Source: Pecten maximus (lineage: Eukaryota). From it: 64,000 nt of DNA. The position numbers and the translations under genes were made by a program. Below, one piece after another: positions 7,536 through 56,259 of the stretch. The stretch lies in contig NC_047023.1 in assembly GCF_902652985.1 (NCBI RefSeq), forward strand, positions 26,784,001-26,848,000, given 5' to 3'. Within the stretch, counting starts at the first letter, position 1. Every line of letters begins with the position of its first letter. The notes under the pieces were generated by a model. That model was not told where the DNA came from. It saw only the letters and a list, made by a program, of their open reading frames with translations, and did not search any database.

Positions 7536-7548
7536 ATATATCATAAAG

Positions 7549-23000: not shown

Positions 23001-26000
23001 GAATAAAACACAAAAACACATCAATGTCATAAGATAATGACACAACGATAAAGGTATATCTTGGTATTACTCCTGCAAACTACAGGTAGTTTCATTCACT
23101 AATTGAATGTAGTGTTACACCTTGAACGCATTAGAAAATGTTTAAATTTAATTTATTTATAATCATATACTGTTGCAGGGCTTTTTCTTTTTGGTTCCGT
23201 TGATTGGCCCCATTCCCAATTGGAATTATTTCATTTTAAATTCAAATTCCCAAAATTGGCAGTTTACTCCTGTAAAAATCTTTCCCAATTCACCAATTTT
23301 CTTCCCAAAATGAGACAAAAAGGCTCCATCCACTTACAGAAAATACACCCGGCGAGTACTCGTCATCAATAGACTTGACATCCTCTATAGCCATATCACC
23401 TTTGTCTGTGTCCATACTAAAGAAGATTGTCTCCACACCGTAGCGGGCATTAGACATATTTCCTGTGTCAATATCGTGGAGAATGAAGTCAAAGTGTGTG
23501 ATATCCTCATTGTATTCCAGATGAGGGAGGTCATCTGATCTATCACCGTGGTCAAACAGGTGGAACTTTAAAGCAGAAATTTTTATTATTTATATCTTCA
23601 GAATGTCATTGATAGCTATATATAGTTATTTACAGGCAAAAACACACAGGCATGAATACCCTTCTGTCTATTTAACATATGTAATCAATCATGTAATTCA
23701 TAATATGGAGCATAGGCTAGGAAGTTGTACCAAGCCCCTGTGATAAGAAAGACAATATATGTATGAGTTCTAAGAGGGCTGATTGATAAGTTGTGAGCCT
23801 CACATTAAAGGATTTGAATTTTGCCGGACATTATTGTATTATTTTTCAACATAATCCCCTTCAGTATCTAAAAAGTATACACTTTTATAGATTCCTTTTC
23901 TTGGCGGTTCAGAGAGTCATCCATTGCATGTTACAGTTATGGTTAGGGTGTCAGTTTTGGAAATAGATGAAAATCTGATGGAGCGATATAAACTAACCAA
24001 ATGAGACCAGTCCTTGGGTACACGGCCCTATATAGTCAGAGAATAGCATTACTTAAAGAGAACATCCTCGAGTACCTCCTTCAATACGAGGCTCACAACT
24101 TATCAATCAGCCCCGGTACAAACATTCTGATGTACATGTAATATAAGTATTCTATATATTTAGGCAAGACATTTCCCCTGCTGCTACACTAGTCAATACA
24201 TTTCCAAGGGAGCATAAATATGACCTTTCAAAAGAGGTATTACGAAAAATGAAATGAAATGGATCATTAACATTCTATAGCAAAGCTACATCAGACTTCA
24301 GTTCATTGTTTTCATGATGGCATGGAGAAAATCTAAAATAAACAAGAACTCATCAGCTGGAATTGAGAGGTTGGGAACCTGTAAATTATGGTTGTGATGA
24401 TATCAGAGCAAGGTGATGTGCTGACTAAGGAAGAAAATGTTTAGGAGTCTTCTCATTCATACCTATTATTTCTTTAATAATTCAAGACAAAAATATTTTA
24501 TACCAGCAAAAACATAATTTTGGCCATTTTTTTTTTATTGATTAAATGTAACACCTTGGTATAGCTGCTAATGAGCTAAACCCAATAATATTCAAACATG
24601 ACATACTACAAGCACTTTTATTCATCATCTATTCAAGGATGCAGCTACGATATAATAAAAGCAGAGTCTATGGACTTTAAAGATGAAAGTTCTGGTATTA
24701 GACAGAACTGTATAGGGGATTATGGGACGGATAAACATACGTACCTGTATTGTTAGGGAGCCGTTAACAATGACAGTTGATTTAGTGGGATCCGTCTGGT
24801 GGATCTTTAATACTATAAGTTCATCTGATGAAGTGTCCATCAGATTCTCCCACTCTGTGTCATCAGCTAGGAAATCGTACACCGTCAGCTCAGGGCCAGA
24901 TGTGCTGTAGTGGGAGAGGTCTGCATCGTCTGAAGTGTCATTGTACTGAAATAACTGGTAAAGACAGCAAAAGTAGGTCTGTCAATTATTTTTCCATTAA
25001 TCTGAATAATCTTAAATGACAGATTACTGTTTGGTTTTGTAGAGTTTAATCTCCTATTATCATCCGTGGTCATGCAAGGACGTCAGAAAAATTATAACCA
25101 AAAAATTATATTAAAATAAAGCACAATTTTTATTTCAGAAAGAAACTATATGTACCATAGAATGGAGACACATGAATATATGATCAGTAATTGTTTATAG
25201 TATATTTCTATTACACAGTGAAAGCATTAATCAATTAAACTATTACAGTAACTGTTTCTGAAAATATTGTTTGTGGAGTTGATTGCCCTGTGAACAGCCT
25301 AGATCATTTAATTTTATGGAAGGGTTTCTTGTGTATCTAGTAGCTGTAAACTTCATTAAATTTATTGAAAACAATTTTGAAATTCCAATTAGTCCACAAA
25401 AAGAGCAGCTAAAAGTAGGTAGCATAGAAGAACTAATTCATCCAAACAATTACATATATTTGAACATGTCCAATTCCTCTCAAGGATATTCCAAAAAGTT
25501 GGCATGTATGAATTTGTAAATATAAAGGACCAGCTGTTCATAAACATAAATAATTAAGTTTTTACATGTTTTACCTACCCTTGTGAATATGATGCCATAA
25601 GAATAGAGAACTTTAGTGAGAGGATTTTTGGCGAAAATAGCTCCGGCTGTGTCATTTGAACGCAGTTTGTCCCAGTTGAAACTCAGCTTGTCATGTTCTC
25701 TATCTGTTAGTGTGTTGGTCCGGATCACCAGTGCGGTGGGAGTTCCCACAGTGGTGAACACAAAGTGTAAGGTGTCTTCATCACCCCTTGCCTTTACATA
25801 GGCCAGTCCCCCTCCGCACTCATCAGTACAGTCTGGGTTCAGGTATGTGTTTAACTGTAACAGTGAATTTCTTATATCAGCTACAAAATTTCATTTGACT
25901 CCAGAAATTAACATATTAACATATTGACACGGACACAAGTCAGATGAGATATACATGTATTTATCCTGAAATAACTCCCCTCCCTAGTATATAAGTTTAG

Positions 26001-29022: not shown

Positions 29023-29222
29023 AAAAACTGTTATGTTTAATATTCTAAATTATCAAATATCCTAACTCTACCAGACAGATTTTTTTTGAAGTATGAATTA
29101 TTTTGATTGACTCATTATTCCTTGCCTTAGTTCTGAATTAACACTCGTCGGTGCCTTGCGTGGAAATAGAATGATGTAAAAACCTGTGTGGTGTAGTTTT
29201 ATCTACCATTTTATTATATACG

Positions 29223-32141
29223 CTGTAGATACAGAGATATCATCTGATCACCATCCGATCACTGCTCAATTTCAACTTGAAGTTGCACGATATAAAACTT
29301 TTAAACAAGGCTATCCCGTCCCCGCTTGGTCAAAGGCTACAGTTGATAATCTGATAGCGTACCAATTGTTAGTTGATTCCGAAATCAAAAGTCAATCTGA
29401 TTTAAGTCACTTTGACGTCACAACACACATCGAAATGCTATGTAAGCAATTGACCCTTATACTGCAAAATTCAGCTCAACATTGCATTCCACGCTCGAAC
29501 TATAATCCCGGGTTAAAGCCATACTGGACCAAGGACGTCCGAATGTCTCATAAAATCGCCAGAACTAAACGGAAAATTTGGATACAAGCAGGAAGACCAA
29601 GAGGAAATCAACATAGTACTTTCCGTGATTATGAAGCTGCAAAAAGACATTTTCGGATGATCCATGAGGAAGCATATAATGACTATGAAACGAACTCAAA
29701 CAGAGAACTCGGCGAGGCGGCTGATTGTGGTATTCGCCTGTTCTGGCAGTTGATAAGGCGACGCAAAAGACAGCCACTGAAGATTTGTAACGAAATCCGA
29801 GAAAATGATACAACAGCTCGTGACCAGGAAAAAATAGCATATCAATTTGCATTTTTTTTTCGAAAATCTATATCACTCCTCAGATGATGATACCTTACCC
29901 GAAATCACCGAGAACTCGTGTGATGAACATAGTGAAGAACTAAGCCGTGAAATCACATTCGACGAAGTTAAAGAAGCTATATGTAAAAGTAAATTACGGA
30001 AGGCTCCGGGAGTCGATGGAATAACAAATGAGCATATTAAATATGGTGGTCGGACATTAATCATTTACCTAACGAAATTATTCAACATTGTTACAATCAG
30101 TCCTAAAATTCCTGAAGGATGGAAAAGGGGTGTTATTATACCAATATACAAGGGAAACAACAAACCAAGATCGGGCCCCGGAATTACCGCCCATTACACT
30201 TTTGCCTGTAGTATATACGCTATATGAAAGTATTCTCCACAGACGGCTCACTTCATGGCTTTCGGAAAATTGCCCAACCTTTCCAAATGAACAACAACAG
30301 GGCTTCCAACGTCAGGTCGGTTGTCAAACAGCGTCATTTAATCTTCAGGAAACACTCTATGCCAATATTGAACAACAGAGCAAAGTGAATGTTGCTTTCC
30401 TCGACATAAAGAAAGCATTTGATACTGTGTGGCATGAGGGACTCATACAAAAACTGAAATCAAAAGGAATTAACGGAAAAATACTTACCATCATCAACAA
30501 CACATATACAGAACTAAAAAGCACTGTACTATGTAATGGAACTAAATCTCGTTGGATCAACATGAAACGTGCATTGAGACAAGGAGGGACTTTGTCTACA
30601 TTATACTATCTGATCTTCATTGACGATCTTCTGAATGACTTGATGGATTCAAATCTTGGTTCGCCGTTAAACGCATTACGCTGTTGTAGCCCTACGCTCG
30701 CTGATGACATTACATTATTAGCGCTGTCGCCACGTTCGCTGCAATGCATGCCTTCTCGATATTTGCGAAAACTATTCATCCCAGTGGAGATTCTTATTCA
30801 GTGCTACAAAAAGTTGTACTATGGTGTTAGGTGGACGATTCAACAACACTAGCTTTCACTGGAGCCTAGATGGAGTGGAATTAGAAACAAAAGAGGTCCA
30901 TGAACATCTTGGAATTCTAATATCCAGCAATTTGTCCTGCTCGAAGATAGAAAAAAGCTGTTAAAAAGGACGCGCATTGCTTTTCTCTGTTCTTGGAGTT
31001 GGAACACATAACTGTAACATCAATCAAATGACATACCTTAATCAATACAGAAAAGTTGTATTACCATCGGTACTATAAGGTTGTGAAACTTGGAACAATA
31101 TTCGACAAATTGATAATGAAAAACTATCATGTTTCCAACATCTAGCAGCTAGGAGAATACAGGAGTTCCCTGCACACACGCGCTCTGATATAGCAGAGAG
31201 TATGTTAGGTGAAATTGACAGAAGAAAATTACAGTTCCTATACCGCCTTATAAAACTTCCAAATTATTTTCTGGCAAAGAAGGTATTTCTAATTCGTTTA
31301 TATACCTACCTTAGCAATGACATTCCAGAACAAAAAGGATTTATACCCGATATGTGCAATCTACTGACTAAATATAACCTCATGGACCTGCTGGAACATT
31401 ATATTCTTACCAAGATAGATTTCCCATCAAAGTTGTCATGGAAGTTACTCATAAACACTTCAATCAGAAACGTCGAAACGACCCTATGGCCTGACCGAAT
31501 GGACCAGGAAAGTGCTTTCTCCAGATTCAAATGTACCCATCATCAGATCTATCCCCATGGACTTTGGCTTAACCCCAAATCATCCCCAGACCCTGCTTGT
31601 GCGCGCTTCGTGTCAAAATTACTAACTTACCCTCCACAGAATAATGAACAGAGATGCACATGTAGCAAATGTGGAAAAATAAGATCTGACATCATACGAC
31701 ATTACGTGACGCAGTGCGATTCCACACATCATCATACGACATTACGTGACGCAGTACGATTCCACACATCTTGTAAGAGACAAATTCATGACAGATGCCC
31801 TAGACTTATGCGATACAGAAACTTGTATAGTGTTGGACAATACTGCCGACGAAGAGTTTGTCCAGATATTATTTGGAAAAACCAACGATAGAATTGAAGA
31901 TATCAGAACTCTACAGATGATGGCCACTCGATTCCTGAGAGCTGCATCGAATGTATATCTTGCAGCTGAGGACAGATTCTAAAACACAGGAAAAGCGCGT
32001 CGCGACGCGAACGCGATGACCCATTTTTTCATTTCCTTCTCTTTTGAAAATCATTGACTGTAATACCAAAAAATAATTGCTTTGTATTTATCTGTATTTT
32101 CTGTATCTCTTTAAGAGGAATTAAAGAATGAATGAATGAAT
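29223..32141 (+). mobile_element. 5'-truncated, decayed LINE of the same lineage as 7536-12957
   Basis: Colinear with copy 1 from the end of APE (SDHHPITAQF) through RT (DIKKAFDTVWH, LRQGG, LADD) to a similar 3' UTR and (GAAT)4; several stops and frameshifts; internal 40-bp tandem duplication 31691-31770. Confidence 0.92.
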
Positions 32142-34174: not shown

Positions 34175-37100
34175 ATGGAGAAATGTACTCTTACAAGCGT
34201 TTTACAAACTCTGGTATACCCTACCACTATTAGGATTGTTAAGGGGGACCTCACGTCCGAGGAAGGTAAATATTTCCCGGACAAACGAAATAATGTCCTC
34301 ACTTTATATGGACGCGGACTTAGGATTTATGTACCCCCTGCCGCCAATGCTGACCTGAGACTCAGATGTAAGGACTCGGATACTTCAGACCGAACGAGGC
34401 GGAAATCAGCTGATGCTGATGATGGAGAAGAGTATACTAACACAGAAAACCTATTCACTAACAACATATTTGTGTCCGATAAAACAGACTTAAAAGATAA
34501 CCATTTCGCAGGCAAGGTTTATAGAAATGTTGCAGACATTCTGAGTGATATGCCGGCATCAGTGAAAGCTAATAGGCCCCTCTTCGGATGCGGTGAGGGT
34601 AATCATATTCGGATGATTTCTGAAGGTGAGGTGCTACAGATCGACCGGTACAAAGATGGAGCAACTAAGAACATCCTGACCGGCTCTGTAAATGGTGAAC
34701 GTGTTTCCATACAATTATCAAATGGATCCGTCGACGTCACTGCCCTGCCAGATCCCAAAGCAGATAACACTGTGATAACTGCTGGTGATGTAATGGATTT
34801 CTATCGACCAAAGGAAATGGTATTTGAGGATGAAGATATACATCAGACATATGAAATAGAGGTAGGGCTTAATGTGTTACCGCTAAACGAGAAACCGTTA
34901 CTTTGTGTGTGTTGTTCGGACGGATACAGCAGCGATCGAATCGAGAATCTTGACAATGACATGCTGAGTATACAGAACGTTTGGTGCCTGAACGTTAGGG
35001 AGGACGTAATGAGTGGAGTTATTGTACAGGTCATCAATACAGATAAGGACTCGTCCTTCAAAGCTGTGTTTGGCAAACACGTGGGAAGGGATCCTGATGA
35101 TTTCAGCTTATACAATCTGTACGGCAAACACTTGTCACGTGAGTATCCATTGTATGACTTCTATAATTACAAAAACGAAAAAGGATAGGGAACAAAATTG
35201 AAAATATTTTTTGCAAGTATATTTATATAAATACAACTAAAGTATATATTTTCAGATGTGTATTATGGTTAGGCACTCTTGAACATTCACCGGTACCTGA
35301 GGTAGATATATGTAGTAGTCTTAGGTGTATACAACACGACGCATATATACTTTGTGTGAATCCATAGTCAAGGAAAGTGTAAATATGGTTGTCAAAAATT
35401 ATTGCTTAAGTAGAATCTGTCGGATACGCCTTCGACATGTAATCACTCAAATCCGAACTTTAATCATACTCCTATATTCAGTGCGTCATTCCCTTTCTTT
35501 AGAATGATTCCCTGCAGGTAGGCCGTAAGAATCACACCAGTTGCACCCATTGCATTATCGTAGGAGGCAACTAAAGTTGGGATCTTATAAATACCCTTTC
35601 TCTTCTTTCTGAACAATCACTGTATCATAGCTGCACCTTGAACCCTAGGATCGATGTACAATATCTTCACCTTGTATCATAGATGTATCATATTTCATTC
35701 ATCTTGTTCTTGGAATATATATATTATGAAGAGTTGACCTCTTCCAGTACGAACTCATTTTCTAGAACATGGGTTCTTATTATGACCCATTTCCCAGTGT
35801 TGCAAGTGTACAATGTAGCAAAATGACCCCAGTACATCGAAATATATACATTGTACAACAAGCTGTCTGGGAAATAAGTTGTCGTGTACTTTTAAAAACA
35901 AACACACATTTTTTCAGTTTTTTTTTTCCAATACATTTAATTTTAATAACTTTGAACATTGCTATTTCAGTGCAATTTTAACAAATCACTTAAGTTGTTA
36001 CGTTTATCAAATTAATACTAAAAAAAACAGGTTATAATAGCGTATGGGGTAGATAATATTTATGTATTGCCAATAAATGAAGTCTAATTGATCAATTCAT
36101 TCTAAATTGGTACCATGATATAGATACTTCCTCAGAATTTATTCGGTTTTTTTTTAAATGATATTGGAGTTAGAGACGTATCTACTCAATCATAATCGGA
36201 GGAAAGAAAAAAGCTTAATGCAGATTTAGGACATCTAATTTTATATTACTGTAACAGAATCACTGCCTCCGCTAGGGATCGAATATAACCCGTCCTGGCG
36301 TAGCTCAAGCACTTCTGACACCAGGGTTACATTACAATTTGAAAGTGGTCGATTGGCTGGTGTGTCCCCACAAGATAGGGAATGTCCATTATGTAACATA
36401 CACATTTACGACGAGTTTCATTACATGTGTATTTATAAATGCGAAAATAACTCGGTGAAGGAAATACGTGACAAATACATACCAGAGTCCTATTACAAGA
36501 TTCCAAGCACTATGAAAATGAAATGAATGTTCACGATTTACAACACTCGACAATTTAAGAATTAGGTAAAAAAAAAAAAAAGGGGGGGGGGGGGGGGGGT
36601 ATGTATGTGCGTGCGTGCGTTCGTCTGGCGTGAACAATGAAATTGTGAAACTAATAATAAAAAAAAACGTATCGTATCTTTACTTCAAAATGTACCTAGA
36701 TTAAACTTCAATTAATCTATCTCTTACATTTATATCATTGTACCGTCAATTATCTTGACCTGTACTTTTTATCCTCTAACATTTATATCATTGTACCGTC
36801 AATTATCTTTACCTGTACTATTTATCATCTCTTACATTTATATCATTGTACCGTCAAATATCTTTACTTGTACTATTTATCCTCTCTTACATTTATATCA
36901 TTGTACCGTCAATTATCTTTACCTGTGCTATTTATCCTCTCTTACATTTATATCATTGGACAATTAATTATCTTTACCTGTACTATTTATCCTCTCTTAC
37001 ATTATATCATTGTACCGTCAATTATCTTTACCTGTGTTTTTTATTGTCTTACATTTATATCATTGTACCATCAATTGTCTTTACCTGTACGTTTTATCCT

Positions 37101-39079
37101 CTTACATTTATATCATTGTACCGTCAATTATCTTTACCTGTGCTATTTATCCTCTTACATTTATATCATTGTACCGTCAATTGTCTTTACCTGTACTATT
37201 TATCCTCTTACATTTATATCATTGTACCGTCAATTGTCTTTACCTGTGCTATTTATCCTCTTACATTTATATCATTGTACCGTCAATTGTCTTTACCTGT
37301 AGGTTTTATCCTCTTACATTTATATCATTGTACCGTCAATCATCTTTACCTGTACTTTTTATCCTCTTACATTTATATCATTATACCGTCAATTGTCTTT
37401 ACCTGTACTATTTATCCTCTCTTACATTATATCATTGTACCGTCAATTACGTTTACCTGTACTTTTTATCCTCTTACATTTATATCATTGTACCGTGAAT
37501 TGTCTTTACCTGTGCTATTTATCCTCTAACATTAATATCACAAGTTCAAGCTCACGTTCTTTTAATGATAGTTTTAAGCCAAAGTTTATCAGTAAAATTA
37601 CATATTCAACAAATCCTCACATTCCTCACACATACTCACAAACCCACACTGGTTATAGCTAGAATAGTGTAAAGAAATGTACCTCACACTCTGGTAATTA
37701 ATTTTACACAAGAGGTCTGAAAATAACGAATTCAGCCATAGAAATTACAGCAGTACATAATTTATTTATAAATACGTTATAGTTTATATATTCACGTTAT
37801 GTATAGAATAATGAATAAATATAGATTGGCAAATTGCCCAAGACTGATTGAATTTGATAATACAGAACATATATTACGTCTCATATCATAACAGCGATCT
37901 CGTTTTTGGTTAAGGAAATGAGTTTGCCAGGTTGGTCAGATCTTTTTCTTTTCTGTGCATATTAGTTTTATAAATGTATACATGCTTGATCTAGTAAAAT
38001 AATATTTTATGAACTTACTTTTCAACTCTGTATAGCATTGGCATTGGAATTCATCTTTTATATCTCCATTATTACAAACATTGCACTTTCTAAGGTTACG
38101 TGATATATCATAACATCCAAACTCTACTTTTAAATTATGTGATGACATTACCTATAGGCATAGTTCAATATGTTTTTTAACCAAAATTATCACTTAATGC
38201 TTATATAAGGCACACTTCAAAGTAGATTTAATCTTTTCTCTAAACTCTTGTTGAAATATATCATGTATCTTAATTTTCGACAACTTCGAAATCTCTATCG
38301 CTTTTATAATCATAATACCACATATATCTCACGAAATCAATTAACCCACACTGTTTATCTAACGTTTCTTGATAGCAGGCTTGCAAAATACTATTGTCTG
38401 AAGATACCCCTGTACCATTGTACAAATACAGATATATTTTTCAGCCGACTACATGGAACCTATACCTCGCCGAGATCCTGGGGTCCAACCGCCCATTTTA
38501 CCATTTCGGCGATCTAAAAAGACAAGTGAAACATTACAACGCCTTCCCATGGCACCATTACCGCCAATACATGTATGTGATGGACCTCATCATCAACCTT
38601 CTCCGTCTGCAAAGGGCAAACAACAGTCTTCGTCACCGATCTTCACAGAAATGACTATTAAGGACGAAGGAACATTTCCAGAAGATGCACCACATCCACA
38701 CAAACAAAAACCAATGGCAGTCACATCAGAAAACTACGTCAACATTGAGGAAAATGAGCCAACAGCGGCCCCACCTGTTTCACATAATGCACCATCAGCC
38801 GTATCGACGAATTGTAAAGACGATCCAAACTCAACTGATGAATTCAAGATGTTGAAGCACGATACAATAAAGATAGACAATATGACAATATCGGAACTTG
38901 TAGAGATGTTCCGGTTTTACAAACTTGACCACATGGCTGATGTCTGCATGGAACATATGGTTGATGGTGTGACATTGTTAGAGTTAGATGAACAGGATCT
39001 TAAATGCGAACCATTTTGCCTCAAGGGGTTAGCCTTAAAACGGGTTCTGTTACTCAAGCAAGGGCACCGACCGAAATGA
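34175..39079 (+). CDS. GAREM-like adaptor 1: CABIT domain, Pro-rich linker and C-terminal SAM (2 exons, ~532 aa)
   Basis: Exon 34175-35138 (TCA C|gtgagt) and exon 38445-39079 (ttcag|CC GAC TAC ATG) join in phase 1. LTSVLQTLVYPTTIRIVKG, YRNVADILSDMP and ISEGEVLQI match the CABIT pattern by eye; SAM MTISELVEMFRFYKL...VDGVTLLELDEQDL...LKRVLLLKQGHRPK ends like GAREM (GWRPK). Confidence 0.8.
36716..37527. repeat. 53-55-bp AT-rich minisatellite, ~15 units, intronic
   Basis: Unit ctcttacatttatatcattgtaccgtcaattatctttacctgtactatttatc. Confidence 0.95.
37880..38230 (-). mobile_element. Decayed LINE ORF2 C-terminal fragment of a different family
   Basis: MSSHNLKVEFG...RKCNVCNNGDIKDEF..C..Y.EL matches the S-H-L-x-x-E-x-G / CxxC / EDE zinc-knuckle tail of CR1/L2-type ORF2. 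Confidence 0.7.
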
Positions 39080-40713
39080 TGTCAATGACATTATTTGAAG
39101 AGTACAAACTGCTGGTGTTCATTGACGGAGCCTAAAACGCACTTGGACTGGTACTGTGATATCCACACATTAAATGAAGCAAATCCAAATAAATTCAGCG
39201 AAAACATAGAATACATAGAATACATATATGATCCAATACTAAACTGAATTAAGTCTTCATGTTCCGTCTTCAGCGTAATTTATCAATCTGCGTATGATGT
39301 ATGATAACCTTATCAAAAATGATATTCCTAAGTATCACTCCCTCTCTGGTACCAGACAGTGACATACATATGCGTCTAAGCATTGTACATGATGCACCCT
39401 GTGTGACACTCCGCAAATACGAAGAAAAACATTTTGCCAACTCTGGTGTCGGTATATTGGACTATGAGGGATACCGTGTCATTGTGTCACCGATATAAGA
39501 TTTCAAAGAACTGCCACTGTAAAGCGGTCACTATGGTTATCCAATTTAAGTCGACATCATTAAATGATTTAATTGTGTTAGTAGGACGTTAAACATTTAC
39601 AACATACCTCAGTGGTACTGACAGAAGTAACCATAGTGGACATCCTATCTACCATTTTGTCTCTTTTATCTCCAACTAACCTAGTGTCTCATTGGAATTT
39701 CGGGCATTATTACCGCTTTTTATGTAAAAGGTGTTTCGTTTTTTATTGATGGTAACAATGTCTCTGTTACATACATCTGTGAAATATACATGTACATTGC
39801 GATATGTCTGGTACTAAGATAGACTTTCGGTAACACTGCTAACTATGTAAAGCATATGACATAGTAAAATGTCCGTTGTATGTCAGTTTGGACATGTACA
39901 TCTATAATGTAAATTGACGTTTCACCATTAGAATTACAAATTTCAACCCAGACTTTGTCATATTTGATCTATGTATATTAAGTATGCCACGCTTTGTAGA
40001 GTTATCATCATTTGTTTAGAGATTTACCTAAGATGGACAACTTTATACTGTCGTTTTCATCATTTATTTTTAACCCACCACTTATATGATCATATGCCTA
40101 TCTTGCAGCAAACTTGTACAATTTGTATTGTCAAGAAAGCATAACATATATTCTCATATTGTTAGAGATGCCTAATTATGAGGCCCCCTGAAAAATCTGG
40201 TACTTTCCTCCGTGTCGTCTATAAAGGGGACATTAAAGAGACCAAAACAGATCTGCAGACCCACCATTGCAACACTCGGGATCTTAAATCTTTCCCCACT
40301 ACTCAGTCTTTCTTTTTATTTCTTAAATGATTTCCCCACTACTCATTTTTTCTTATTTTTTCTTAAATGATTTCCCCACTACTCAATCTTTCTGTCTTTC
40401 TATAGGTGCCGCCTTTGCACCCATCCTCATAGGACCATGGCTGTTAAACACCTAAATATAAACAAAACCTAGTAAACTGCTGACAACACGGATTATAATC
40501 AAATAAATTAACAATCAAGCGTGAGCCTAGCCTGGTATTACTCACACACACAATATTCAACCTTGTGCCCACAGGGGATGACATACAGTTATTGTTTTAG
40601 AACAAGACTCTTTATGTTCAAAATCAATTTTAAAGATCATTCTCATTTTCAACATTTTTTTTTTTAATTACCTAAGAAGATAACAACACCTGTGATTACA
40701 ACGTGTGTGAAGC

Positions 40714-40927
40714 TTTGGTTTGTTTTTGTTAAACGTCCTATCAACAGCCAGGGTCATTTAAGGACGTGCTAGGTTTTGAAGTTGGAGGAAAGCCGGAGTA
40801 CCCGGAGAAAAAACCACCGGCCTACGGTCAGTACCTGGCAACTGCCCCACGTAGGTTTCGAACTCGCAACCCAGTGGTGGAGGGCTAGTGTTAAAGTGTC
40901 GGGACACCTTAACCACTCGGCCACCGC
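40714..40927 (-). mobile_element. tRNA-derived V-domain SINE, near full-length
   Basis: Minus strand: A box gtggccgagtggtt, B box gagttcgaaac, core ggttttttctccgggtactccggctttcctcc, end ctggctgttgataggacgtttaac. Confidence 0.88.
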
Positions 40928-42889
40928 ACAATGTATATAAGGACAGACGTTTGTTGTTAAGTTTACTGGTTTTTTTTTTTTTTTCAATTGCTTCTAACGA
41001 CCTTGTATGCATTATGTATGCCAATGCAGGTCAACTCACGGATACAATCACTTAGTGTAAAATGACAACATATCAATTTTGATTCTGATGTGTATTTTCT
41101 GTGTTGCAGATTATTTTTCCGTGTAATATACCAGGCAAGCTAAGATGATTCATATGTTAAACACCACTTACTAAAATGTAATCGCCGTTTGTCACTTACA
41201 CATATTGCTCACCGATTGACACGTCGCGTGATATCCATGTGATATAGAAGTGAAACCGCGAGGTAGATTTAAACAAGGCCTTTCGCTAGTCTGTTTCAAA
41301 ATCAATGTACAATTGATATATGCATGTTACGTAAAGCAATACGTTTATGTACACTAATCTGCTTGTGGAGACTTACAATCCAGAAGAAATTATTGGTTCA
41401 GCTGATCATATGATTTTTTATATATATTTGTTTGTAAAAGCACGGATAATATGAGCATGCTATTTCTATAGATAACAATCCGAGGAACGTTTTATTTTCT
41501 AGCTTTTTTAGGGTTCCACAATATATTTGAAGAATGTTATTTAATACTGTAAGTATGAATGTTTACCTTTTTTATTTAGCGAAAAACGACATGAAGATGT
41601 GACGTTATCATAACATTCTGATATTACGGGGTTATTCATGTTTCAGTTGAACGCCGTTATCAACATATTCCACGAACAAAAGTGATGCATCCTTATCATG
41701 CGTACAAAAACCACTAATAAAATATGTATTTGGTTATTGAAGCAAAGTGTGCATTCCGGAGGTATTTTTTTACTCTATAGAGGTTGTATATCTTTGTTTT
41801 ATCTGTACTTAATAACTGACCCAAATGTGAATTACCGGTGACATTGACATGAACATCTTACAATATATAAAAGCGATAGGCTGAATAAAAGGTCTCGAAA
41901 AAACCCACACATATAATTCTGTAATAAAAGTAATTTAGTGCTAATTATGGATCTTTACAGAATTACATCCTCTCTTGTCAGTCTTGTATATCTCCTCCGA
42001 GACATTTTCAAAATGTACACTCATGCTGTTAAAATGTTGGGGGGGAGGGGTTGTAGTAAATAGATGTTCATATATGAATTAATTCCTGAATTGAAACAGC
42101 CTAGATTATTGTTTGGTAAAGCTACATTAATTATGGGGTTTATTTGGTGTCATTTGTCAACAACCAGTTATTGAAAGGCTAAATGAATATGGATAAGTTT
42201 CAATTTTGTAGTGGGTAATTAGGTACATATGTAATTTTTAATCTAGTGCAATGGCAACTTCATATTATGGTATCGTGGAGTGCATGTTCATCGAATAACA
42301 ACCGATTTGTATATTTTTTGAATGTTAAAAAATAAAGTATATTGTGACAAGCAAGGCTGTTTTCATTGTTTGTTTCAATAAAATCAGCAATAATCAATGT
42401 ACAAAAAGTGTCCTTTTCAAAATAATTATTCAATTAAGCAATAATAATAATAACAATAATAATGTGTGAAATCTGATGATTCCCGATATGTTCTTCCACG
42501 AGCGGTGACCACGTTTTAATAATAGTAACAAGACTAACCATACACGGTACGTAAAGGTAAACTCTTACCTGAAAACTTATTTAGCACGCATGTCAAGTTA
42601 CTGTGTACCTATCCTGTCATACTTTAAATAACAGACGACGGAAGTGTTCAGTGCACCCGTTTCACGCTAAACAAAGGTACATGTGTGGATTGTGTATACT
42701 GATATATTCTACACAAAGCACTATCAATCTTAAGACAAATTTGAAGGGAAATATTTGAGACCTACCGATTCCAGCTAATCTCATTTGTATCGTAAAGGTA
42801 CCGGCTTTGAACGAAGTACACGGAAGATTGGGATGAAACAGGAAAATGGCGTCATTATAATACTGGTGTACGGTAGGTTGTTAAACATT

Positions 42890-42962
42890 TGTACTTCCTG
42901 GTTGTTATCAAGCAAATAAATCGTGGGATTTATCTGTACTATTTCCTGGTGTATATATATCT
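42890..42962 (+). promoter_or_regulatory. Putative promoter of CABIT-SAM gene 2: ETS+GATA block and TATA-like box
   Basis: Same 22-bp block as 34001-34022, then ggtgtatatatat. Confidence 0.45.
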
Positions 42963-43050
42963 TTTGACATTCCTGACTGGTCAGCATAGCCTTTGGATTG
43001 CATTTGTTGAGTATATTATATATTGGTCTGTGTGGTAGAAGACCTGGCTA

Positions 43051-45671
43051 ATGGAGAAATGTTCTCTTACAAGCGTTTTACGAACTCTGGTATACCCTAC
43101 CACTATTCGGATTGTTAAGGGTGACCTCACGTCCGAGGAAGGTAAACATTTCCCGGACAAACGAAATAATGTCCTCACTTTATATGGACGAGGGCTTAGG
43201 ATATATGTACCCCCTGCCTCCAATGCTGACCTGAGACTCAGATGTAAGGACTCGGATACTTCAGACCGAACGAGGCGGAAATCAGCTGATGATGGTGATG
43301 GGGACGAGTATACCAACACAGAAAACCTATTCACTAGCAACATATTTGTGTCCGATAAAGCAGACTTAAAAGATAACCATTTCGCAGGCAAGGTTTATAG
43401 AAATGTTGCAGACATTCTGAGTGATATGCCGGTATCTGTGAAAGCTAATAAGCTCCTCTTCGGATGCGGTGATGGTAATCATATTCGGATGATTTCTGAA
43501 GGTGAGGTGCTACAGATCGACCGTTATAAAGATGGAGCGCTTAAGAACATCCTGACCGGCTCTGTAAATGGTGAACGTGTTTCCATACAATTATCAAATG
43601 GGTCCGTCGATGTCACTGCCCTGCCCGATCCCAAAGCAGATAACACTGTGATAACTGCTGGTGAAGTAATCCACATGGATTTCTATCGACCAAAGGAAAT
43701 GGTATTTGAGGATGAAGATATACATCAGACATATGAAATAGAGGTAGGGCTTAATGTGTTACCGCTAAACGAGAAACCGTTAATTTGTGTGTGTTGTTCG
43801 GATGGATACAGCAGCGATCGAATCGAGAATCTTGACAATGACATGCTGAGAATACAAAACGTTTGGTGCCTTAACGTTAGGGAGGACGAAATGAGTGGAG
43901 TTATTGTACAGGTCATCAATACAGATAAGGACTCGTCCTTCAAAGCTGTGTTTGGCAAACACGTGGGAAGAGATCCTGATGATTTCAGCTTATACAATCT
44001 GTACGGCAAACAATGGTCACGTGAGTATGCATGGTACGATCTAAGTAAGAACAGATTTGGTAAACATAAGTTGAAAATACTTTGCAAGTATCTATTTTCA
44101 TGTGTTTACTATGGTTATGCACCCTTGAACACTCCCTGGTATCTACAATAACTTTACATAGAAGTGAAAACAACACGACGGCTTGTTTATGTATAAAATC
44201 CCGATATTATATGCTTAATTCAAATAATTGTTCAGATGATTACCAAATATTGCTTTTTCAATATGAATTTGTTGGTTACGCCTCCGATATACAACCTTGT
44301 TATATTCTTGTTATATAACTTAGTCATACTCCTACATGAAATCATATCATTTATTTAGGATTACTGCCCGGAAGTTAAATATAAGAATCATACTTGCTGT
44401 CCGAAGAGCATGATCATAAGAGGCGACTAAATGTAGGATATCGGCTTTTCTCTCATTTCTAAATACCTTTCTTCTTCTTAAACGAAAATTTCGGGTCTTG
44501 TCCCTGGCCGAGGCATACTAGAGTCTCTTAAATGTTTTTTTTTTTTTTTAACTCGTACTTAACACGTAGAATAATATGACAGGGTGAGGTGTCCTACTGG
44601 GTCTTTGGCATTATGTTTCAGTGAGGTAGCAAACAGGGAGGCTGTGATTTGTAGGGCTTTAAACAACACTTAACCAAACCAAACCTGTAATACCATTTCA
44701 ATCTACGGTTTTTATCAGAAAAAAAAATAATAATACTCATTTAACAGAATTAGCCCCAGTGCGATGTAAAAAAAATACAACTCGTGTTGATAAGCGATTC
44801 GCCTCTTAACCATTGTACAGGTACAACCAGGGGACACATTCGCCATATGTAGATTACATAATTTCTATTAATTCTTCAAAATTGCATCAATTGTTATGTT
44901 AAAATCCAAAGAAAATTAAGAAATTAACATTGACATATTAGAAATATTATTACTCAAATAACTCCGACACGTAAAATCTTAATTTTAAAGTATTCTGTTT
45001 CAGCTGACCTTAAACCTACATCACGCCGAGATCCTGGGGTCCAAGGACCGCCCGCTGTACCTCGTAGGAATTTGCTTCCAATTTTACCACCTCGATCATT
45101 TGCAAGGGAAAGTTTAACCTTACAGCAGCTTCCCAGAGCACCACCTCCACCTATATGCATTGAAGCCCACATACAACCTCCTTCGCCCGAAGAGATCAAA
45201 CGCCAACTGTCGTCGCCAACCTTCACACAAAGCACGTTCAAGGAAGACGATGCCTTCGATCAGGTCAAACCGCATCCACACAATCAACGATTAATGATGA
45301 ATGAATCAAGAGACCACTGCAGGAACGTTGATGAATACAAAGCAGCACCAGTACCACCGGTTTCATCTTACACACCATTAACATCAGCTGTGCCGACGCT
45401 GAATTGTACAGACGATCCAAACTCAACTGATGAATTCAAAATGTTGAAGTTAGATACAATAACGATAGAAAATATGACAATATCGGAACTTGTAGAGATG
45501 TTCCGGTTTTACAAACTTGACCACATGGCTGATGTCTGCATGGAACACATGGTTGATGGTATGACGCTGTTAGAGCTAGATGAACATGACCTAAAAGAGA
45601 AACCATTTTACCTCAAGGGGTTAGCCTTAAAAAGGGTTCTGTTACTCAGGCAGGGACACCGACCGAAATAA
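43051..45671 (+). CDS. GAREM-like adaptor 2: CABIT, Pro-rich linker and SAM (2 exons, ~545 aa); tandem paralog of 34175-39079
   Basis: Exon 43051-44020 (TCA C|gtgagt) and exon 45004-45671 (ttcag|CT GAC) join in phase 1; exon 1 is ~95% identical to the paralog in the stretch counted; SAM ends LRQGHRPK*. Confidence 0.8.
44365..44685. mobile_element. Degenerate SINE fragments (Meta-like), related pieces near 35520-35590 and 46200-46430
   Basis: taagaggcgactaaa motif; ttcagtgaggtagca shared with 46313; (accaa)n tail. Confidence 0.45.
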
Positions 45672-48383: not shown

Positions 48384-51300
48384 TTAATGGTTTGTGTGTC
48401 CATGATGAGGATGGAAATGACTTTCGTGTTTACACACAACGACCGGTACGTGTGCGTGGTGAACGATGTAGTCACTGACACTGCCCAGAAATGTCCGTCG
48501 GATCTTCCCCTGCCCACGTGATCCAATAACAATCATTTTTGCACCAATATCGTTACACTTGTGTAACAACACGTGCGCGGGATCTCCATGGATTCTTGAG
48601 ATAACGGCATTCAGCTAAAACATGAATAGCGTGATATAAAACCGGTATGATAACGTGAAAGGTCCTAGTCATGTTAACAAAATTAAGTATTTAGATTATA
48701 TTCTATTTCATAATCTAAACCTCCATTGTTAGTTAATTTTCATGGTGTAACAAAACTATCTGATATCCTTAAGATGTTAATGTTTTTGAACTATGTCAAA
48801 GTGATATGAATTAAATCGTCGCGCAATAAAAGTTATTGGAATGTTTGGGACAATAAAAGTAAAAAAGATATACTAAGACAATTTTGTGGACAACTATGGT
48901 CTTCTGGCAAATTTTTAAGCATCTTTACAACTGAGCCTTTGAAAAGTGAATTTTTCTCATATTGGCACGGTCATTGGGAAACGAACCTTAGTTTTTAGAC
49001 ATTTTGTCACATGAGTGGAAAATTAGATTGTTCGGTATACTTACATGCCAGTCATGGAGTTTCTGTTTGATATGCTCCATAGTTTCATGGATTCGCTTTT
49101 CCTCTTCGTCTATGACGGACTGTAAAAGTCCAGGTTCGGCTGGAGCCATGGACATAGCTGATAAAAAAATCAGTGTTTGTAACAGTGCATATAGATATAT
49201 AGATATATTTATACAAATTCAGATTGGGATGATTAATAGTTTTAATCGATGTATGAAACAAATTCGCTTCAATGTTGAACATGTACCTCTAAATGTATAA
49301 CTTTTAAATATCTCATATGCTAATAGCAAGCACCAAATAAAATGATAAAAAGGGTTTTTTTATGATACAAATATTTAAGTGTTGGTATTCAACGTGTAGC
49401 TTAAAAAAACCATGGTTACTAGTATAGATACAAAAACGGTAAAACAAATTGACAGTAATTGTTGACATCTTTGAAAGAGTACTGCTGTTTTCTTATGTTT
49501 AATCAAACCAATATAAATTAAATATGGGAATCAGATTTTATGACATCTCATGATCCCCTCCCTGGAAATATATTACATTCCAAACAAGACAAAGCCAATT
49601 GAATGATTTTAGTTGTAGTTTTGTTATGAAGTTTTGCTATTTTCCTTGATATTAGAAAACATGCATATACTGATGTCATATTTAACATTAATATTTCTGT
49701 ACGTAGGCTCTTACTATACTACTATTTTTACTCAACTACATGTACTGTATTTTATAATGACAAGTCTACAATAGTTCCAAAGGTTACAATCAATTCCCTG
49801 TTAAAACACAGTTGTGACACAATGTTCACAAACAGCTATATGAGGATCCGAAGCAGGGGATATGTTAAATATTCATACACATACACAGTACATATACCTA
49901 GGGATAAAAGATAATATCTGTAGTCAATGCCAAATATATATATATATATATATATAGGGTCTAGTAAGTAATAACGACGGTATAAACCAATATATATGTA
50001 CTGGATCCTAACAAACAAATGTTGGAAGCGTATTACTAGAAATAGAAATATATGTCAAGTAGTAATAACGACAGTACAGACAAGTAAATTGTCGAACTTT
50101 TGAGGCAATCTGCCCCTTTATCAAGACACAGGTAAATTAAAAGTAACGGATTGGATAAACCGGATCACAATATAGGTAGCCTAGATTATGATGCGTATTA
50201 CTTCGTGTGATAGATAGGGTCTATTAAGTAATAACGACGGTATAAACCAATATAGGTACTGGATCCTAACAAACAAATATTGGATCCCCTGGTTAGTATA
50301 TCAGCTTTGCAAAATACAATGTTCGCCCAAGTATGGAAGTATAATGAATACATGACATTTGATTAGTAGCCAATGTCTAGGTAAAATAAACTGTAAAATG
50401 TACATTTTATATGTTCACAAATAAATAATATAATACTAATACTTTATTCTTGAGAAGAAATATGCTAAATAAATCTTCAACCCTCTTGATATGATCTTCA
50501 TTTCATCGGGAATCTAGAGAACATCAAATTAAATTGAAAAGAATGGATCTGTATGTAAACCAATTTATGTATTAGCTTTTACACTGTTCGTTGACGTCGT
50601 AATGTATTTGGACATTGACGATTTGTTGTCACAATTGGAAATAGGAGCCTACAGCTAATTGAAGACCCGGTAGATAGTATCAGAACTTTGCTCATAACAA
50701 ACTTTATGTAATGGACATACAACACCAAAACAGTGTAATGATATGACGATTAAACATAGTTATTTCCGCCTGGTCTTTCTTAAGTTTTTGTTTTTTAGGA
50801 CTAACATTAGATTTATATAGTATATATACAGTGGAAAATTCCACTTGAAAACATCACGTACCAATTTTCAATGCCAAACGATATCTTTCTTGAGTTCTAT
50901 TTTTAGAACTAGTGACTATGCCGTAGATGTTATTTAAAGCAGTACATCATCTTCTGGTTGATAACATAACTACACTTTGTAAGTCTGTTTTCATATTTAA
51001 CCAACTGAATTAGACACTGAAGCATTCAGATCCGGATACACTGTTGTACCGGACTTACCACCTTCAGTCGTGTGACTACGGCGGGAACGTCTTGGGGAAC
51101 GGCAAATACTCCCTAAGGCTGAGAGTAAGAAAACGTACTTGATTTACATTATAAGACACTTTTCTATCTCTTGTTAAAACTTCTAATAAATGAAGCACGA
51201 ATATCTCGGTGCTTAATATTAAGCTTAATAGTAAGACATCCTCACTTTGTGTAATGACCAAATTTTACGAGAGACTTTAAATAGGCAGAACGGAAATAAG

Positions 51301-54300
51301 AAACTTTTTTTAAATATGTAGTTCTGAATAATAATTTAAGCATCCTTAATATTGTTAACGTTCATCGCATGGTTAGTCTTAAAACTCAATCTGTATGATG
51401 AGTAAAATGTTGTGTTTCAATAGCCTTTATTACAAATCAATATAAAAAAAAAAAATGATATACAAGCATATTACTATTTTTACACAAAAGTCTTTCAACA
51501 CGTGGCTAGGGTTCTTATGTTTAGGATTGAATGAATCTAAGAAATCAAGCCAGCAATTTAATAATAGCCAATGGCTTGTGGGAACAATTTGGGTTAGAAT
51601 AGACATGTTTTCTGTATTGTTTAAAATGTCATTCCGTCTCTGTATTGGTGTGCCATACCAAGTTGTGGGTAACATATTGTCTGGTTGTAGTCACCATAGT
51701 ACAACATACTGTTTGAAGGTGACCCTATATATCAAACAGCTAGTATTATCAGACATAAACTTCTATATATCGTATTTACTCACACAAACTTTCCATCGCT
51801 TTGTAGTTACCGCAGTGGATGATATGAACCTCATTTTCCGGCCGATGGATTTTTTCCATATAGTCTGCAATAAAAAGAATACTTAGTGTGTAATATATGT
51901 CAGGTAAGGTAATGTGTGTATATATATGCCAGATAAAGTATTGTGTAAATATATAGATATACAGTATATATGCCAGGTAAAGTATTGTGTAAACATATGC
52001 GATGTAGGGTATGGTGTATATACCTATGCCAGGTGAGGTATGGTGTATATAAATGCCATGTGAGGTATAGTGTGTGTATATATATGACAGGTAAGGTATG
52101 GTGTATATATATGTGCCAGGTGAGGTATGGTGTATATATATATGACAGGTGAGGTATGGTGTGTGTATATATGACAGGTAAGGTATGGTGTGTGTATATA
52201 TGACAGGTGAGGTATGGTGTATATATATATGACAGGTGAGGTATGGTGTGTATATATATGACAGGTAAGGTATGGTGTATATATATATGACAGGTGAGGT
52301 ATAGTGTGTATATATATATATGCCAGGTGAGGTATGGTGTGTATTTATATGCCAGGTAAGGTATGGTGTATATATATATGCCAGGTAAGGTATGGTTTAT
52401 ATATATATGACAGGTAAGGTATGGTGTATAAATATATGCCAGGTGAGGTATGGTGTATAAATATATGCCAGGTGAGGTATGGTGTATATATATATGACAG
52501 GTGAGGTATGGTTTATATATATATGACAGGTAAGGTATGGTGTATAAATATATGCCAGGTGAGGTATGGTGTATATATATATGACAGGTGAGGTATGGTG
52601 TATATATATATGACAGGGGAGGTATGGTGTATACCGTATATCGGGTTTTTTTTAGCGAGTGTCTAATTTTCGCTATTTTCGCGACCAGACTGACAATTCG
52701 ACAACGAGCCCCTGTTTGACGACAGTGACAATTTTATTACTTCCTATATATCAGGAATAGAGCTTATAATAATGTTGTGTCGAGTCGGTCGACTTCATTT
52801 TTTCTATTATTAAATTTTACTCTCACAACTTGCTTTGCTTTTTTTGTGGTGGTTTATGTAGATAAATGCTAGCGTTCGAAATCTCTCCTGGCTGAATGTA
52901 ACTGGGGACCATTGTTTTGACCAGCAACACCTGGGGCTGTATCCCTACTCTGACCGAATCACTGTAAATTGTAGTATACAGTCTCATGAATACAATTTGG
53001 TTTACTAACGACATATAGGCAAATATATATGACAGGTGAGGTATGGTATATATATATATGACAGGTGAGGTATGGTATACATATATATGACAGGTGAGGT
53101 ATGGTATATATATATATGCCAGGTAAGGTATGGTGTGTGTATATATAACAAGTGAGGTATGGTGTTTGTATATATGCCAGGTCAAGTGTCGTGTATATAT
53201 ATATGCCAGGGGAGGTATGGTGTATATATATATATATGCCAGGTGAGGTATGGTGCGATTCATTTTCACAGTATTACAGAATATACCAAACGATTCGGTG
53301 TTTATTTAAGCATTGAACGGCTTTCAGTTGGCATTCATATTGACTATGAATGCCAACTGAAAGCCGTTCAATGCTTATATTTACCATCTGCGATTTTTTA
53401 TTTGTCGTGCGATTTTTTTCAAATTCAAATTTCAGTTGGCAGTTCATAAGCTGGTGAACTCGCAACTGAATTGGTAGGGTTATATAGTGGCAGTGCCATA
53501 CAATGGTAAATATTTATAGATAAATGCAAGTATCTTTTCATATATTACAACATATACCTTATATTTTGTTGATTTTTCCTGTAGTTTTAATATAGTAAAT
53601 GAAGGAGCATCAATAGAGTAGTAGTGCATTATGTCATAAATACCTGTATAAGTGCATACATGTACCCAGTGATCACTAACAACATGTGAGACTATAAAGA
53701 ATAGTGATCAACGATTGATTAAATCATGTATGTACTCCCTCGTTACTTGTTCCATATGTTTAACAATACACAAGTTCTCGAGTGAATTGATTCCTTCTTC
53801 TATTTATGTTTTGTGTTTTGTTTCTATTTCTGTACAATTTCTGCAAAGATTGATTTTGCGTCTAACAATATTATTTCTTAAAGGCTTGTCTAAACTGAGA
53901 GCAATTTCTAAGTAATTGGCGAGACAGGAAATTTTACAACACTGATATGTGAGCAAAAACTGCATAAGTCGTATAAATGGCAGTAAATAAACTAAGGACT
54001 CTGTTACAATTAGTCTTACCCCATGGCAGATCCATTCAATTCAGCGTTAATTTTACATGAAATGCTGCACACAACTGGTATTTAAGATAAAAAAGCATGG
54101 AGATCGTAGCTAAAAGCACCCTGCTTCTAAATAAGAACCAGTAAGCAGTTGTTACAGTGATTTATGAATAGAGAACATTATCAAAGTCATAGATGTGGTG
54201 TACATATGCATTGCAACTTAATTGCAGACGGTTATCGACATTTTAATGTTAACTCATCCCTAAAGTATATACACATATGCGATATCTTTGTATTAAATCA

Positions 54301-54463
54301 CATGATCAGTGATCAGGTACACGTAACGTTTTGTACCACAGGGGTGTTTATATATACGCATACTACATATCAAGGTGTATGACCAGTACTTACATTCTAG
54401 GGCGTAGTCGGAATGTTTACTCCCGTCCATGCATACAGCTACAGTGGTTTTCTTGTCCGCCAT
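48384..54463 (-). CDS. Universal stress protein A-like (USP-1), 4 exons, 164 aa, His-rich tail
   Basis: Exons 54463-54394, 51864-51784, 49157-49045 and 48614-48384 (70/81/113/231 nt, GT-AG, in phase). VAVCMDGSKHSDYALE; ATP-binding motif GSRGQGKIRRTFLGSVS; HAHVPVVVC. Confidence 0.93.
49954..50278. repeat. ~65-bp direct repeats (49954-50019, 50214-50278) around a possible Penelope-like pLTR remnant
   Basis: atagggtcta(g/t)taagtaataacgacggtataaaccaatat...gtactggatcctaacaaacaaat occurs twice. Confidence 0.65.
51886..53255. repeat. ~28-32-bp satellite (g[a/c]caggt[g/a]aggtatggtg(ta)n) split by a ~390-bp insertion
   Basis: Arrays at 51886-52632 and 53021-53255; the insert starts ta|ccgtatatcggg...aattttcgc, resembling a DNA-transposon end. 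Confidence 0.92.
53307..53377. repeat. Perfect 33-bp inverted repeat with 5-nt loop
   Basis: taagcattgaacggctttcagttggcattcata-ttgac-tatgaatgccaactgaaagccgttcaatgctta. Confidence 0.97.
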
Positions 54464-56259
54464 ACTGACCTCCAGTCTGTCGTCTGTTTTCTTCAGTACT
54501 GATAGCACACGTACAAAGAATTGTACAAATATATTCGAAATATGTGTACCTGTTGGCGTTTATTTGGGCAATATCCACAGGTGAACGAGAGACGGTTTGA
54601 TAGCCCAGGTTAAATGGTTTATATATGTATAGTGGACGGGCAGTCTGTGTACGTGGTCAGTCTTACAACGTTAACACCAACGGAATCATTGAGACACACA
54701 CACACACCAGACGCCGATGTACAATATGTTATGTTCTACACATTTAACTTAACATTGCGCATGTAGGTCAAGGGTATGTCGTTAGTAGGACAATATGGCG
54801 ATTCCACATTGTTGTTGTTCATTGGATAGGCAATGACGCAAGCCAAAATAAATCTTCATTCAAATGACTTTAATCTTGTGTAATGTATCCCCAATATTAC
54901 GTAGATTTACTGTATTATGAACATGTGTAACCTTGCTTCTCTTCACTCGACCTAGAGGACGTTTTCACCTACTATCTGGCTTACTACGTATCAATATATC
55001 ATATCTAAATATGTTATCTATCGATAGATTAGATAAGTACATTGTACGTAGATCGTTTATGCAGGTGAATGATTTACAATCTAATTTTAATGTTTTTAAT
55101 ATATATTTCAAATAAATGAAAACATACATTTTAATATATATCATATATATTATACTTAACCTTTAATATCTTCAATACCTAGAAAACTACAGTGTATTTA
55201 AAGACAGAAACTGTATTTGATAATCGCTATACATGTAAAAGTGACAGAAGGGACGTGTTATCATTTTTGAAAGGTTTAAGTGAAATTGAGGATATGATTA
55301 ACAGGCTTAAAATGTTATCATTGTGTATATCTTTAACACCTTTCAGTAAATTTAGTCCTTTAAATATATCGTCTAAGCTGCTTGCGTGTTTTCATCAAAT
55401 TACCATCCTTTAAACTGTAAAAGACTTAGTAGACATCAATATCTGAAACTTATAAAACATAAACAGTTTTATCGTGACGGTACTATGTAGAAATGATCGA
55501 CACATATAAAACCGTTTACACCAGTTGACTTGATTATAGAAACATTGTCTTTAACAGCTGTATAAGGTCCTGAATATGTATCAATATTATCTAAAAAATC
55601 TAAATACACGAAACTATAACTCGAACACAAAATCGATAAACCGGTGGAAAATATAAACCAATATATTTCTTTGTAGGATAGCATTTGTTACACAAGGGAT
55701 ATAACTCAATGATTATCTACTGATTATTTATCATATAATTTATCAGTTACTTCATACTGGTATGTGTTATCATCTGCTATATTTTAATTCATTTGTTTCC
55801 AATGTCACTAAAAATGACCTAGTCGATTACGTTGTGATTAGGAAATATGCATGCAACATGTACTTCGACATGGGATTCATATTTACAGATTCATGTTGTC
55901 AACGTTGTCTAAAAATTCAAGGATACAAACCATGTAGGATTTATTCATAAATGTACAATTATGAATTAAGTTTGATATGATTAATTAACTACACATTTTA
56001 TGAGGGATTCCTACGCATCAATTGTGTTACTATGTTATATATATTTTTACATATGATTTAGCATCACAAGAATATAAGTCAGAAACAAAACTGGAGTCGG
56101 GTAAATAAAATTTGACTTTATTGATATTAAGTCGTAGCAGTGATACATTCAACTCATTCATTTGTAAAAGATTCAAAACCAAGTACAGAGTACTTTGGTT
56201 AATTCGGCCACTTATTATTTGTATAATTTGCTTTAGGACGGCACTGGCTAAGGCTAGAT

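Follow-up and report, generated by a model that had tools for sequence, protein, structure and literature searches.

A tandem pair of transcribed scallop genes encoding candidate GAREM-like adaptors with a cysteine-less CABIT-like domain

The 64,000-nucleotide stretch of the Pecten maximus genome analysed here (contig NC_047023.1, positions 26,784,001 to 26,848,000; hereafter the window, in whose coordinates features are given) contains a tandem pair of spliced, transcribed two-exon genes on the forward strand, which we term gene A and gene B. In both genes, the first coding exon encodes a domain that appears to be a remote homolog of the CABIT domain, and the second exon encodes a proline-rich linker and a SAM domain. 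The pair thus has the domain order of the vertebrate adaptors GAREM1 and GAREM2 (FAM59A/B), namely a single CABIT-type domain, a proline-rich region and a C-terminal SAM domain (PMC4082722). GAREM binds Grb2 downstream of EGFR (PMC4082722, PMC8086153, PMC10968029). We propose, with a probability of about 0.5, that the two scallop proteins serve tyrosine-kinase signalling as GAREM-like, non-enzymatic scaffolds to which Grb2 would be recruited.

Gene A consists of coding exon 1 at 34175..35138 (residues 1-321, the CABIT-like domain), an intron at 35139..38444 and coding exon 2 at 38445..39079 (linker, SAM domain and stop codon). The intron is 3306 nt long and holds a 53-bp tandem array at 36721-37540. 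Gene B has the same layout, with exon 1 at 43051..44020 (residues 1-323; 96% DNA identity with gene A exon 1), a 983-nt intron at 44021..45003 and exon 2, including the stop, at 45004..45671. A preliminary description, made from the sequence alone, had joined four open reading frames into two paralogous genes spliced in phase. This reconstruction is borne out, as both introns are phase 1 with GT..AG borders and the joined exons give stop-free proteins of 532 (gene A) and 545 (gene B) residues, both ending in GHRPK. The products are identical, letter for letter, to the database entries P0005 and P0006, which are ‘uncharacterized’ RefSeq proteins of Pecten maximus (LOC117334862 and LOC117334385).

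RNA contigs from 5 of 24 listed runs were compared with the window. Contigs span the gene B junction (44020>45004) in 4/4 runs from three studies and the gene A junction (35138>38445) in 1/4 runs (38 letters on the short side; recorded as ‘between: not known’). Both junctions, which the preliminary description had set as a check, are therefore present. Run labels are coded, and two runs are recorded as RNA while the rest are guessed or unlabelled; the absence of a GT..AG intron at a joint is indicative of transcripts. The contigs, which show neither start sites nor expression levels, extend about 400 nt 5′ of the gene B start codon and over long stretches 3′ of both stops; they give thin cover of gene A exon 1. 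RNA contigs also lie over most of the stretch after the gene A stop, 39080-42350 (40501-41499 was outside the comparison), and suggest a gene A 3′ untranslated region (UTR) of about 3 kb that ends near the 5′ end of gene B.

To place the pair, a three-sequence exon-1 profile was searched against 1.84 billion representative sequences. Six of the seven matches were retained, comprising gene A, two proteins from Argopecten irradians, one from Mizuhopecten yessoensis, one that clusters with a Tegillarca granosa protein, and one fragment. The seventh (P0012), a bacterial Ig-repeat protein, was dropped as a chance match. A relative from Ylistrum balloti was added by a later search. Beyond four scallop species, one ark clam and the fragment, no member of the subfamily was found. 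The fragment (P0011, 330 residues, lacking the YxN site described below) was used in profiles A4 and A7 and left out of the seven-protein motif counts and trees; P0013, which nearly duplicates P0010, was excluded. The CABIT-like domains of genes A and B are 53-62% identical to those of the other scallop proteins and 24% identical to that of the ark clam, and all 7/7 full-length proteins close with a G-[HW]-R-P tail. UniRef automatically names the Mizuhopecten and Tegillarca relatives CABIT-domain proteins. The preliminary description had called the pair highly divergent; this applies relative to GAREM and THEMIS and does not apply between the paralogs, whose identity is 94% over exon 1 and 89% over the SAM domain.

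The relationship of exon 1 to CABIT is supported by profile comparison. Exon 1 itself matches at least two loci in its own genome, genes A and B. Further CABIT and SAM exons occur beyond the pair, so that there is a wider family in this genome, as had been anticipated. A cluster at G000:C4:37.83-37.94 Mb (the C4 cluster) comprises four exons for CABIT domains and three for related SAM domains. The exon-1 family profile aligned to the four C4-cluster paralogs in hhalign with a probability of 95.3% and E=2.1e-8 over residues 3-221. The score was 64.8; 40 shuffles by column reached at most 20.2, 40 by block at most 36.0, and the reversed control scored 15.9. Three of these four paralogs pass the Pfam CABIT cut-off, so exon 1 shows profile homology to accepted CABIT domains, and the outcome that the preliminary description had named as refuting, no profile or structural match to CABIT, was not observed. 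A joint alignment has common anchors along the whole length of the domain (P16, K114, Y116, P127, F217, P241, V284 and Y313). In a language-model protein atlas, the nearest clusters to exon 1 are CABIT clusters (0.92, 195/256 features; the recognition value is low and the result weak alone), and those nearest to the whole protein are CABIT+SAM clusters (0.94, 198/256 features). A profile of seven Pfam-positive scallop CABIT exons found human THEMIS as its only match in the PDB (E=7e-4), linking the pair to THEMIS and THEMIS2 by remote homology through scallop paralogs. The THEMIS match of a mixed profile (E=3e-4) was not taken as independent support, being driven by the Pfam-positive members. 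Against the PDB, a seven-sequence exon-1 profile gave only LexA rows at E>=0.3, and the match obtained with a 12-sequence profile (E=0.0016) was to an unrelated archaeal protein; the latter indicates that PDB matches near 1e-3 can arise by chance.

In an AlphaFold2 model of the exon-1 domain (predicted local distance difference test, pLDDT, 77.8; predicted template modelling score 0.69), beta structure predominates and an SH3-like barrel is predicted in the centre, at residues 110-197. An SH3-like head in mid-chain is a feature of CABIT domains, and the pair shares it, within a mostly beta domain, with THEMIS and THEMIS2. The fold neighbours of the model include FeoA (3E19), IdeR, ScaR and 3G1J, all of which are also named in the structure paper on THEMIS CABIT2. 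The buried cysteine that is conserved in the SH3-like head of CABIT domains (THEMIS C152/C413, PMC13381594) is missing from the pair. Gly170 of gene A (34682..34684) aligns with this column, although one alignment, by hhalign against the C4-cluster paralogs, puts the cysteine as an insertion beside Gly170. Neither protein has any cysteine between residues 139 and 244/246, and the relatives carry G, V or Y at the position. Because both the Pfam cut-off and the conserved cysteine are lacking, we file exon 1 as a CABIT-like remote homolog, not as a canonical member, on profile evidence. The cysteine has been suggested in the CABIT2 structure paper to be only structural.

The SAM domains lie at 38864..39076 in gene A (residues 462-532) and at 45456-45668, within exon 2, in gene B. 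Pfam SAM_1 alone scores below its cut-off (E=0.24). Since chance PDB matches can occur near 1e-3, a SAM match at E=0.0026 was re-tested with SAM-only profiles. The profile of seven tails has 2DKZ (LOC64762) as its best PDB match (E=2e-5), and its 12/12 PDB rows are SAM domains or SAM-containing proteins, as judged by name. Adding four more scallop exons of the same SAM type improved the 2DKZ match to E=9e-10. Three of these four exons lie in the C4 cluster, each 3′ of a CABIT exon on the same strand. Human LOC64762 we take to be GAREM1. The profile matches thus support the assignment of the tail to a SAM domain of the GAREM type, in agreement with the preliminary description.

We next consider the short motifs expected of an adaptor. 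A Tyr-Thr-Asn motif at residues 87-89 (34433..34441 in gene A, 43309..43317 in gene B) is a candidate SH2 docking site. It lies in a loop that is acidic around Tyr87 and, with pLDDT below 50 over residues 69-92, predicted to be disordered. Y87 and N89 are among 26 columns that are invariant in 7/7 full-length relatives, including the 24%-identical ark-clam protein. A YxN occurs anywhere in a comparable window in about 10% of shuffles per sequence; the weight therefore lies on its one fixed position in a relative that shares little else of the loop. The SH2 domain of Grb2 prefers pYxN. Two other YxN motifs are present, at Y116 in both genes and at Y419 in gene A only. Y116 (YRN) was rejected as a docking site, being part of the folded head and retaining its Asn in just 4/7 proteins. 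An RxRxxS site, a consensus of basophilic kinases, stands just before the YxN loop (34391-34411) and occurs in 4/6 scallop proteins. The linkers carry PxxPxR, once in gene A (residues 338-343, 38492..38509) and twice in gene B (45051-45068 and 45078-45095), so that both motifs named in the preliminary description are present. This motif lies 15-36 residues past the domain end in 6/6 scallop proteins (6/7 overall), with a chance of 0.01-0.10 per sequence in shuffles, and is the preferred ligand of the N-terminal SH3 domain of Grb2 (PMC10968029). Short L-P-x-A-P and S-P-[IT]-F blocks are also kept in the otherwise divergent exon 2 linkers.

From these features, a mechanism can be drawn. Tyr87, in the loop within the CABIT-like domain, would be the target of a tyrosine kinase, whose action would create a pY-x-N site of the kind bound by the Grb2 SH2 domain. 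The PxxPxR motif downstream of the domain may bind a Grb2 SH3 domain, in a placement like that of the Grb2-binding proline-rich segment that directly follows the CABIT domains of THEMIS. The SAM domain could cluster the adaptor or bind another SAM domain. The protein would thereby act as a cytoplasmic scaffold that couples a tyrosine kinase to Grb2 via the loop tyrosine and the proline motif. THEMIS engages the phosphatase SHP1 by way of a phosphorylated tyrosine in a loop (PMC13320886), so that Tyr87 could likewise have a phosphatase as its partner.

The pair differs from its vertebrate counterparts in several respects. At 532 and 545 residues, the proteins are shorter than vertebrate GAREM with its 875 residues (PMC10968029), as the preliminary description had stated. 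Unlike GAREM, they have no direct CABIT match and no conserved cysteine, and the conserved acidic YxN loop inside the domain is a feature of the pair. In contrast to THEMIS, which is defined by tandem CABIT domains followed by PxRPxK, the pair has a single domain and a SAM tail, lacks PxRPxK and carries Gly where THEMIS has Cys152/Cys413. Invertebrate CABIT-SAM proteins are also close, the nearest atlas clusters carrying CABIT and SAM (150 members mostly from Mollusca, 52 mostly from Cnidaria and 105 mostly from Mollusca). The subfamily of the pair differs from these in scoring below the Pfam model, in the species in which it was found (four scallops and one ark clam, besides the fragment) and in the two copies, a lower bound, counted in this genome. 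Drosophila Serrano (Sano) is an invertebrate member of the THEMIS-related family, but has 778 residues and acts in planar polarity via Dishevelled (PMC2776533).

A number of results weigh against a GAREM-like Grb2 adaptor. Neither exon 1 nor the full proteins gave a Pfam CABIT row (PF12736, gathering cut-off 24 bits) at any E-value up to 1, and matches were found in 0/8 proteins scanned and not in P0014; a genome-wide PF12736 search, limited to the best candidates, likewise did not return the two loci. A direct sequence search of the PDB with exon 1 found no match. The hhalign match leaves residues 222-321 uncovered, these last 100 residues being aligned by MAFFT only. Five other scallop CABIT exons alone did not match the profile (probability 2%), so that the link to CABIT runs through one paralog group. 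The confident fold model also needed the C4-cluster paralogs in its alignment, as the model built without them has a pLDDT of 42.9 and is confident only at about residues 112-193. THEMIS was not among the matches listed in five fold searches, made without a positive-control model in a library that may or may not include it. The claim that exon 1 is a CABIT domain is upheld as remote homology, by the profile match and its controls, and is qualified as regards a Pfam match, the conserved cysteine and THEMIS among the listed fold neighbours. Among the motifs, PxxPxR is missing from the ark-clam relative, and its presence in six scallop sequences does not represent six independent events, since these are related. 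The THEMIS-type PxRPxK occurs in 0/7 proteins, and the Gab-type PxxxRxxKP is found in neither the gene A nor the gene B protein. The SHP site of GAREM1 at Y453, which resembles an immunoreceptor tyrosine-based inhibitory motif (PMC8086153), is not conserved either, a similar site being present in 1/7 proteins, that of gene B only. Finally, the proline-rich segment of THEMIS alone does not bind Grb2, and both CABIT domains are needed (PMC13381594).

We compared the two copies to understand their history. Between A and B, silent divergence amounts to 0.089 for exon 1 and 0.26 for the SAM region; the linker value, 0.76, comes from a less certain alignment. The silent differences number 18/214 in exon 1 and 13/59 in the SAM region (Fisher p=0.009). 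Non-coding divergence (5′ flank, intron start and 3′ UTR) is 0.27-0.33; the value for the 5′ flank is to be read as a floor, since its identity of 73.5% is not far above the 59-65% that the aligner gives for unrelated DNA. The ratio of nonsynonymous to silent divergence (dN/dS) is below 1 in every region (0.32 in exon 1, 0.26 in SAM and 0.56 in the linker). The high identity begins and ends at the edges of exon 1. Because the silent divergence of exon 1 is far below that of the SAM region and the flanks, the data are most simply read as conversion of exon 1 following an older duplication, which we consider probable. A duplication in the Pecten lineage would have been followed by conversion that keeps the CABIT-like exon near-identical, while the motif-bearing linker diverges. 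A contig from run X5 that resembles an A/B mosaic was not counted for conversion, as assembly of near-identical copies can yield such contigs. Gene B has two PxxPxR motifs and lacks a tyrosine just 3′ of the exon junction; gene A has that tyrosine and a second YxN in the linker. Trees of both domains place A and B together, with support of 87/94 and 90/93, below the strong-support mark of the tool, and with a very long ark-clam branch. This moderately supported sister relationship implies that the Argopecten pair is probably a separate duplication. A more specific and rather doubtful proposal is that the bivalve subfamily rebuilt the CABIT adaptor by dropping the cysteine and by using the in-domain YxN for signal-dependent binding of Grb2 via SH2, with SH3 binding in addition, where THEMIS has a constitutive SH3 clamp, and that conversion in Pecten keeps the input exon while the output linkers diverge like non-coding DNA.

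Several alternative explanations accept the adaptor architecture and differ in its partners or setting. The main partners could be other SH2/SH3 proteins, such as Crk, Nck, Src-family kinases or CIN85-like proteins. PxxPxR is a generic SH3 ligand, the THEMIS- and Gab-type Grb2 motifs are absent, and a tyrosine is present just past the junction (Tyr in 5/6 scallop proteins, with a Y-x-x-P context in 4/6, and lost in gene B). Asn at Tyr+2, the residue selected by Grb2-family SH2 domains, is however invariant in 7/7, and all vertebrate CABIT proteins bind Grb2 according to the discussion of PMC13381594; we regard this option as unlikely. About equally unlikely is a role in haemocyte or immune signalling, which would be a special case of Grb2 recruitment and not exclusive of it. 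Immune genes are often repeatedly duplicated and of low identity between species, and the family shows both traits, with two copies each here and in Argopecten and 54-62% domain identity among scallop species; THEMIS proteins are also immune adaptors. Against this, dN/dS is below 1 throughout and the architecture fits GAREM, which is ubiquitous or neuronal (PMC8086153). The immune role suggested in the preliminary description found no support. Sano, the one invertebrate family member for which we found a functional paper, acts in planar polarity, binds Dishevelled and controls tube length (PMC2776533). The pair could by analogy encode scaffolds for epithelial polarity or morphogenesis outside receptor-kinase signalling, but their architecture is that of GAREM (PMC4082722) and we consider this quite improbable.

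Two further explanations question the premises. Exon 1 could be an unrelated domain built around an SH3-like barrel. We judge this very improbable given the controlled profile match, the CABIT and CABIT+SAM clusters among its language-model neighbours, the anchors common to the joint alignment from P16 to Y313, and a SAM tail of the same type as that on a C4-cluster CABIT paralog. The pair could also be an assembly artefact of uncollapsed haplotypes, as the near-identity of exon 1 might indicate, or one copy could be a pseudogene, to which the thin RNA cover of gene A exon 1 might point. The flanks and linker are, however, only 69-77% identical, the intron lengths differ, runs X3 and X5 each carry exon-2 contigs of both genes, and both frames are intact with dN/dS of 0.32 in exon 1 and 0.24 in the SAM domain, which leaves this explanation with hardly any likelihood. 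GAREM-like scaffolding through Grb2 is our preferred interpretation.

The window contains several other genes. At least three genes for universal stress proteins (Usp, PF00582) are arrayed in tandem at 48384-61813 on the reverse strand; last exons at 48387-48614, 57420-57692 and 61607-61813 score above the Pfam cut-off. The forward strand carries the last exons of a cyclic-nucleotide-binding protein (cNMP_binding, 624-2519), probably an HCN/CNG-type channel from its sequence, and the reverse strand carries exons of an NCU-G1/GLMP lysosomal membrane protein gene (21669-25890). A broken element of the long interspersed nuclear element (LINE) type lies at 7279-12792 on the forward strand, with a long upstream open reading frame and matches to endonuclease and reverse transcriptase; tandem arrays of a 36-bp unit lie on either side of it, at 7057-7535 and 13615-14864. 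A second broken LINE-type element with a reverse transcriptase match lies at 29180-31891 on the same strand. Elsewhere in the genome, the CABIT and SAM exons of the C4 cluster (L024-L031, L034-L040 and L043) are interleaved with at least four small heat-shock (HSP20) open reading frames, and one of its CABIT exons, L037, is below the Pfam cut-off. A 637-residue open frame at L006:226-2136 (G000:C4:11.64 Mb) begins with a Pfam CABIT match, shows additional weak stretches of CABIT-like sequence, and is possibly a tandem-CABIT, THEMIS-like protein.

The CABIT+SAM architecture is no molluscan novelty, as the atlas clusters that carry it are commonest in Mollusca and Cnidaria. The two genes had already been modelled, and close relatives had been labelled automatically. 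What is new is that the cysteine is missing, that the YxN loop is conserved and that homogenisation is confined to one exon. Searches of the main texts of the open-access literature found no paper on CABIT proteins of molluscs, which agrees with the preliminary description in that it knew of no functional account in molluscs. Because the architecture is widespread and automatically annotated, and the function is deduced from sequence, the pair alone opens no new biology. It does give a name to two uncharacterized scallop genes that Pfam misses. CABIT domains may tolerate the loss of their namesake cysteine, which bears on whether this residue is only structural. A compact, naturally cysteine-less domain with one conserved YxN would provide a simple test case for the roles of CABIT proteins outside lymphocytes.

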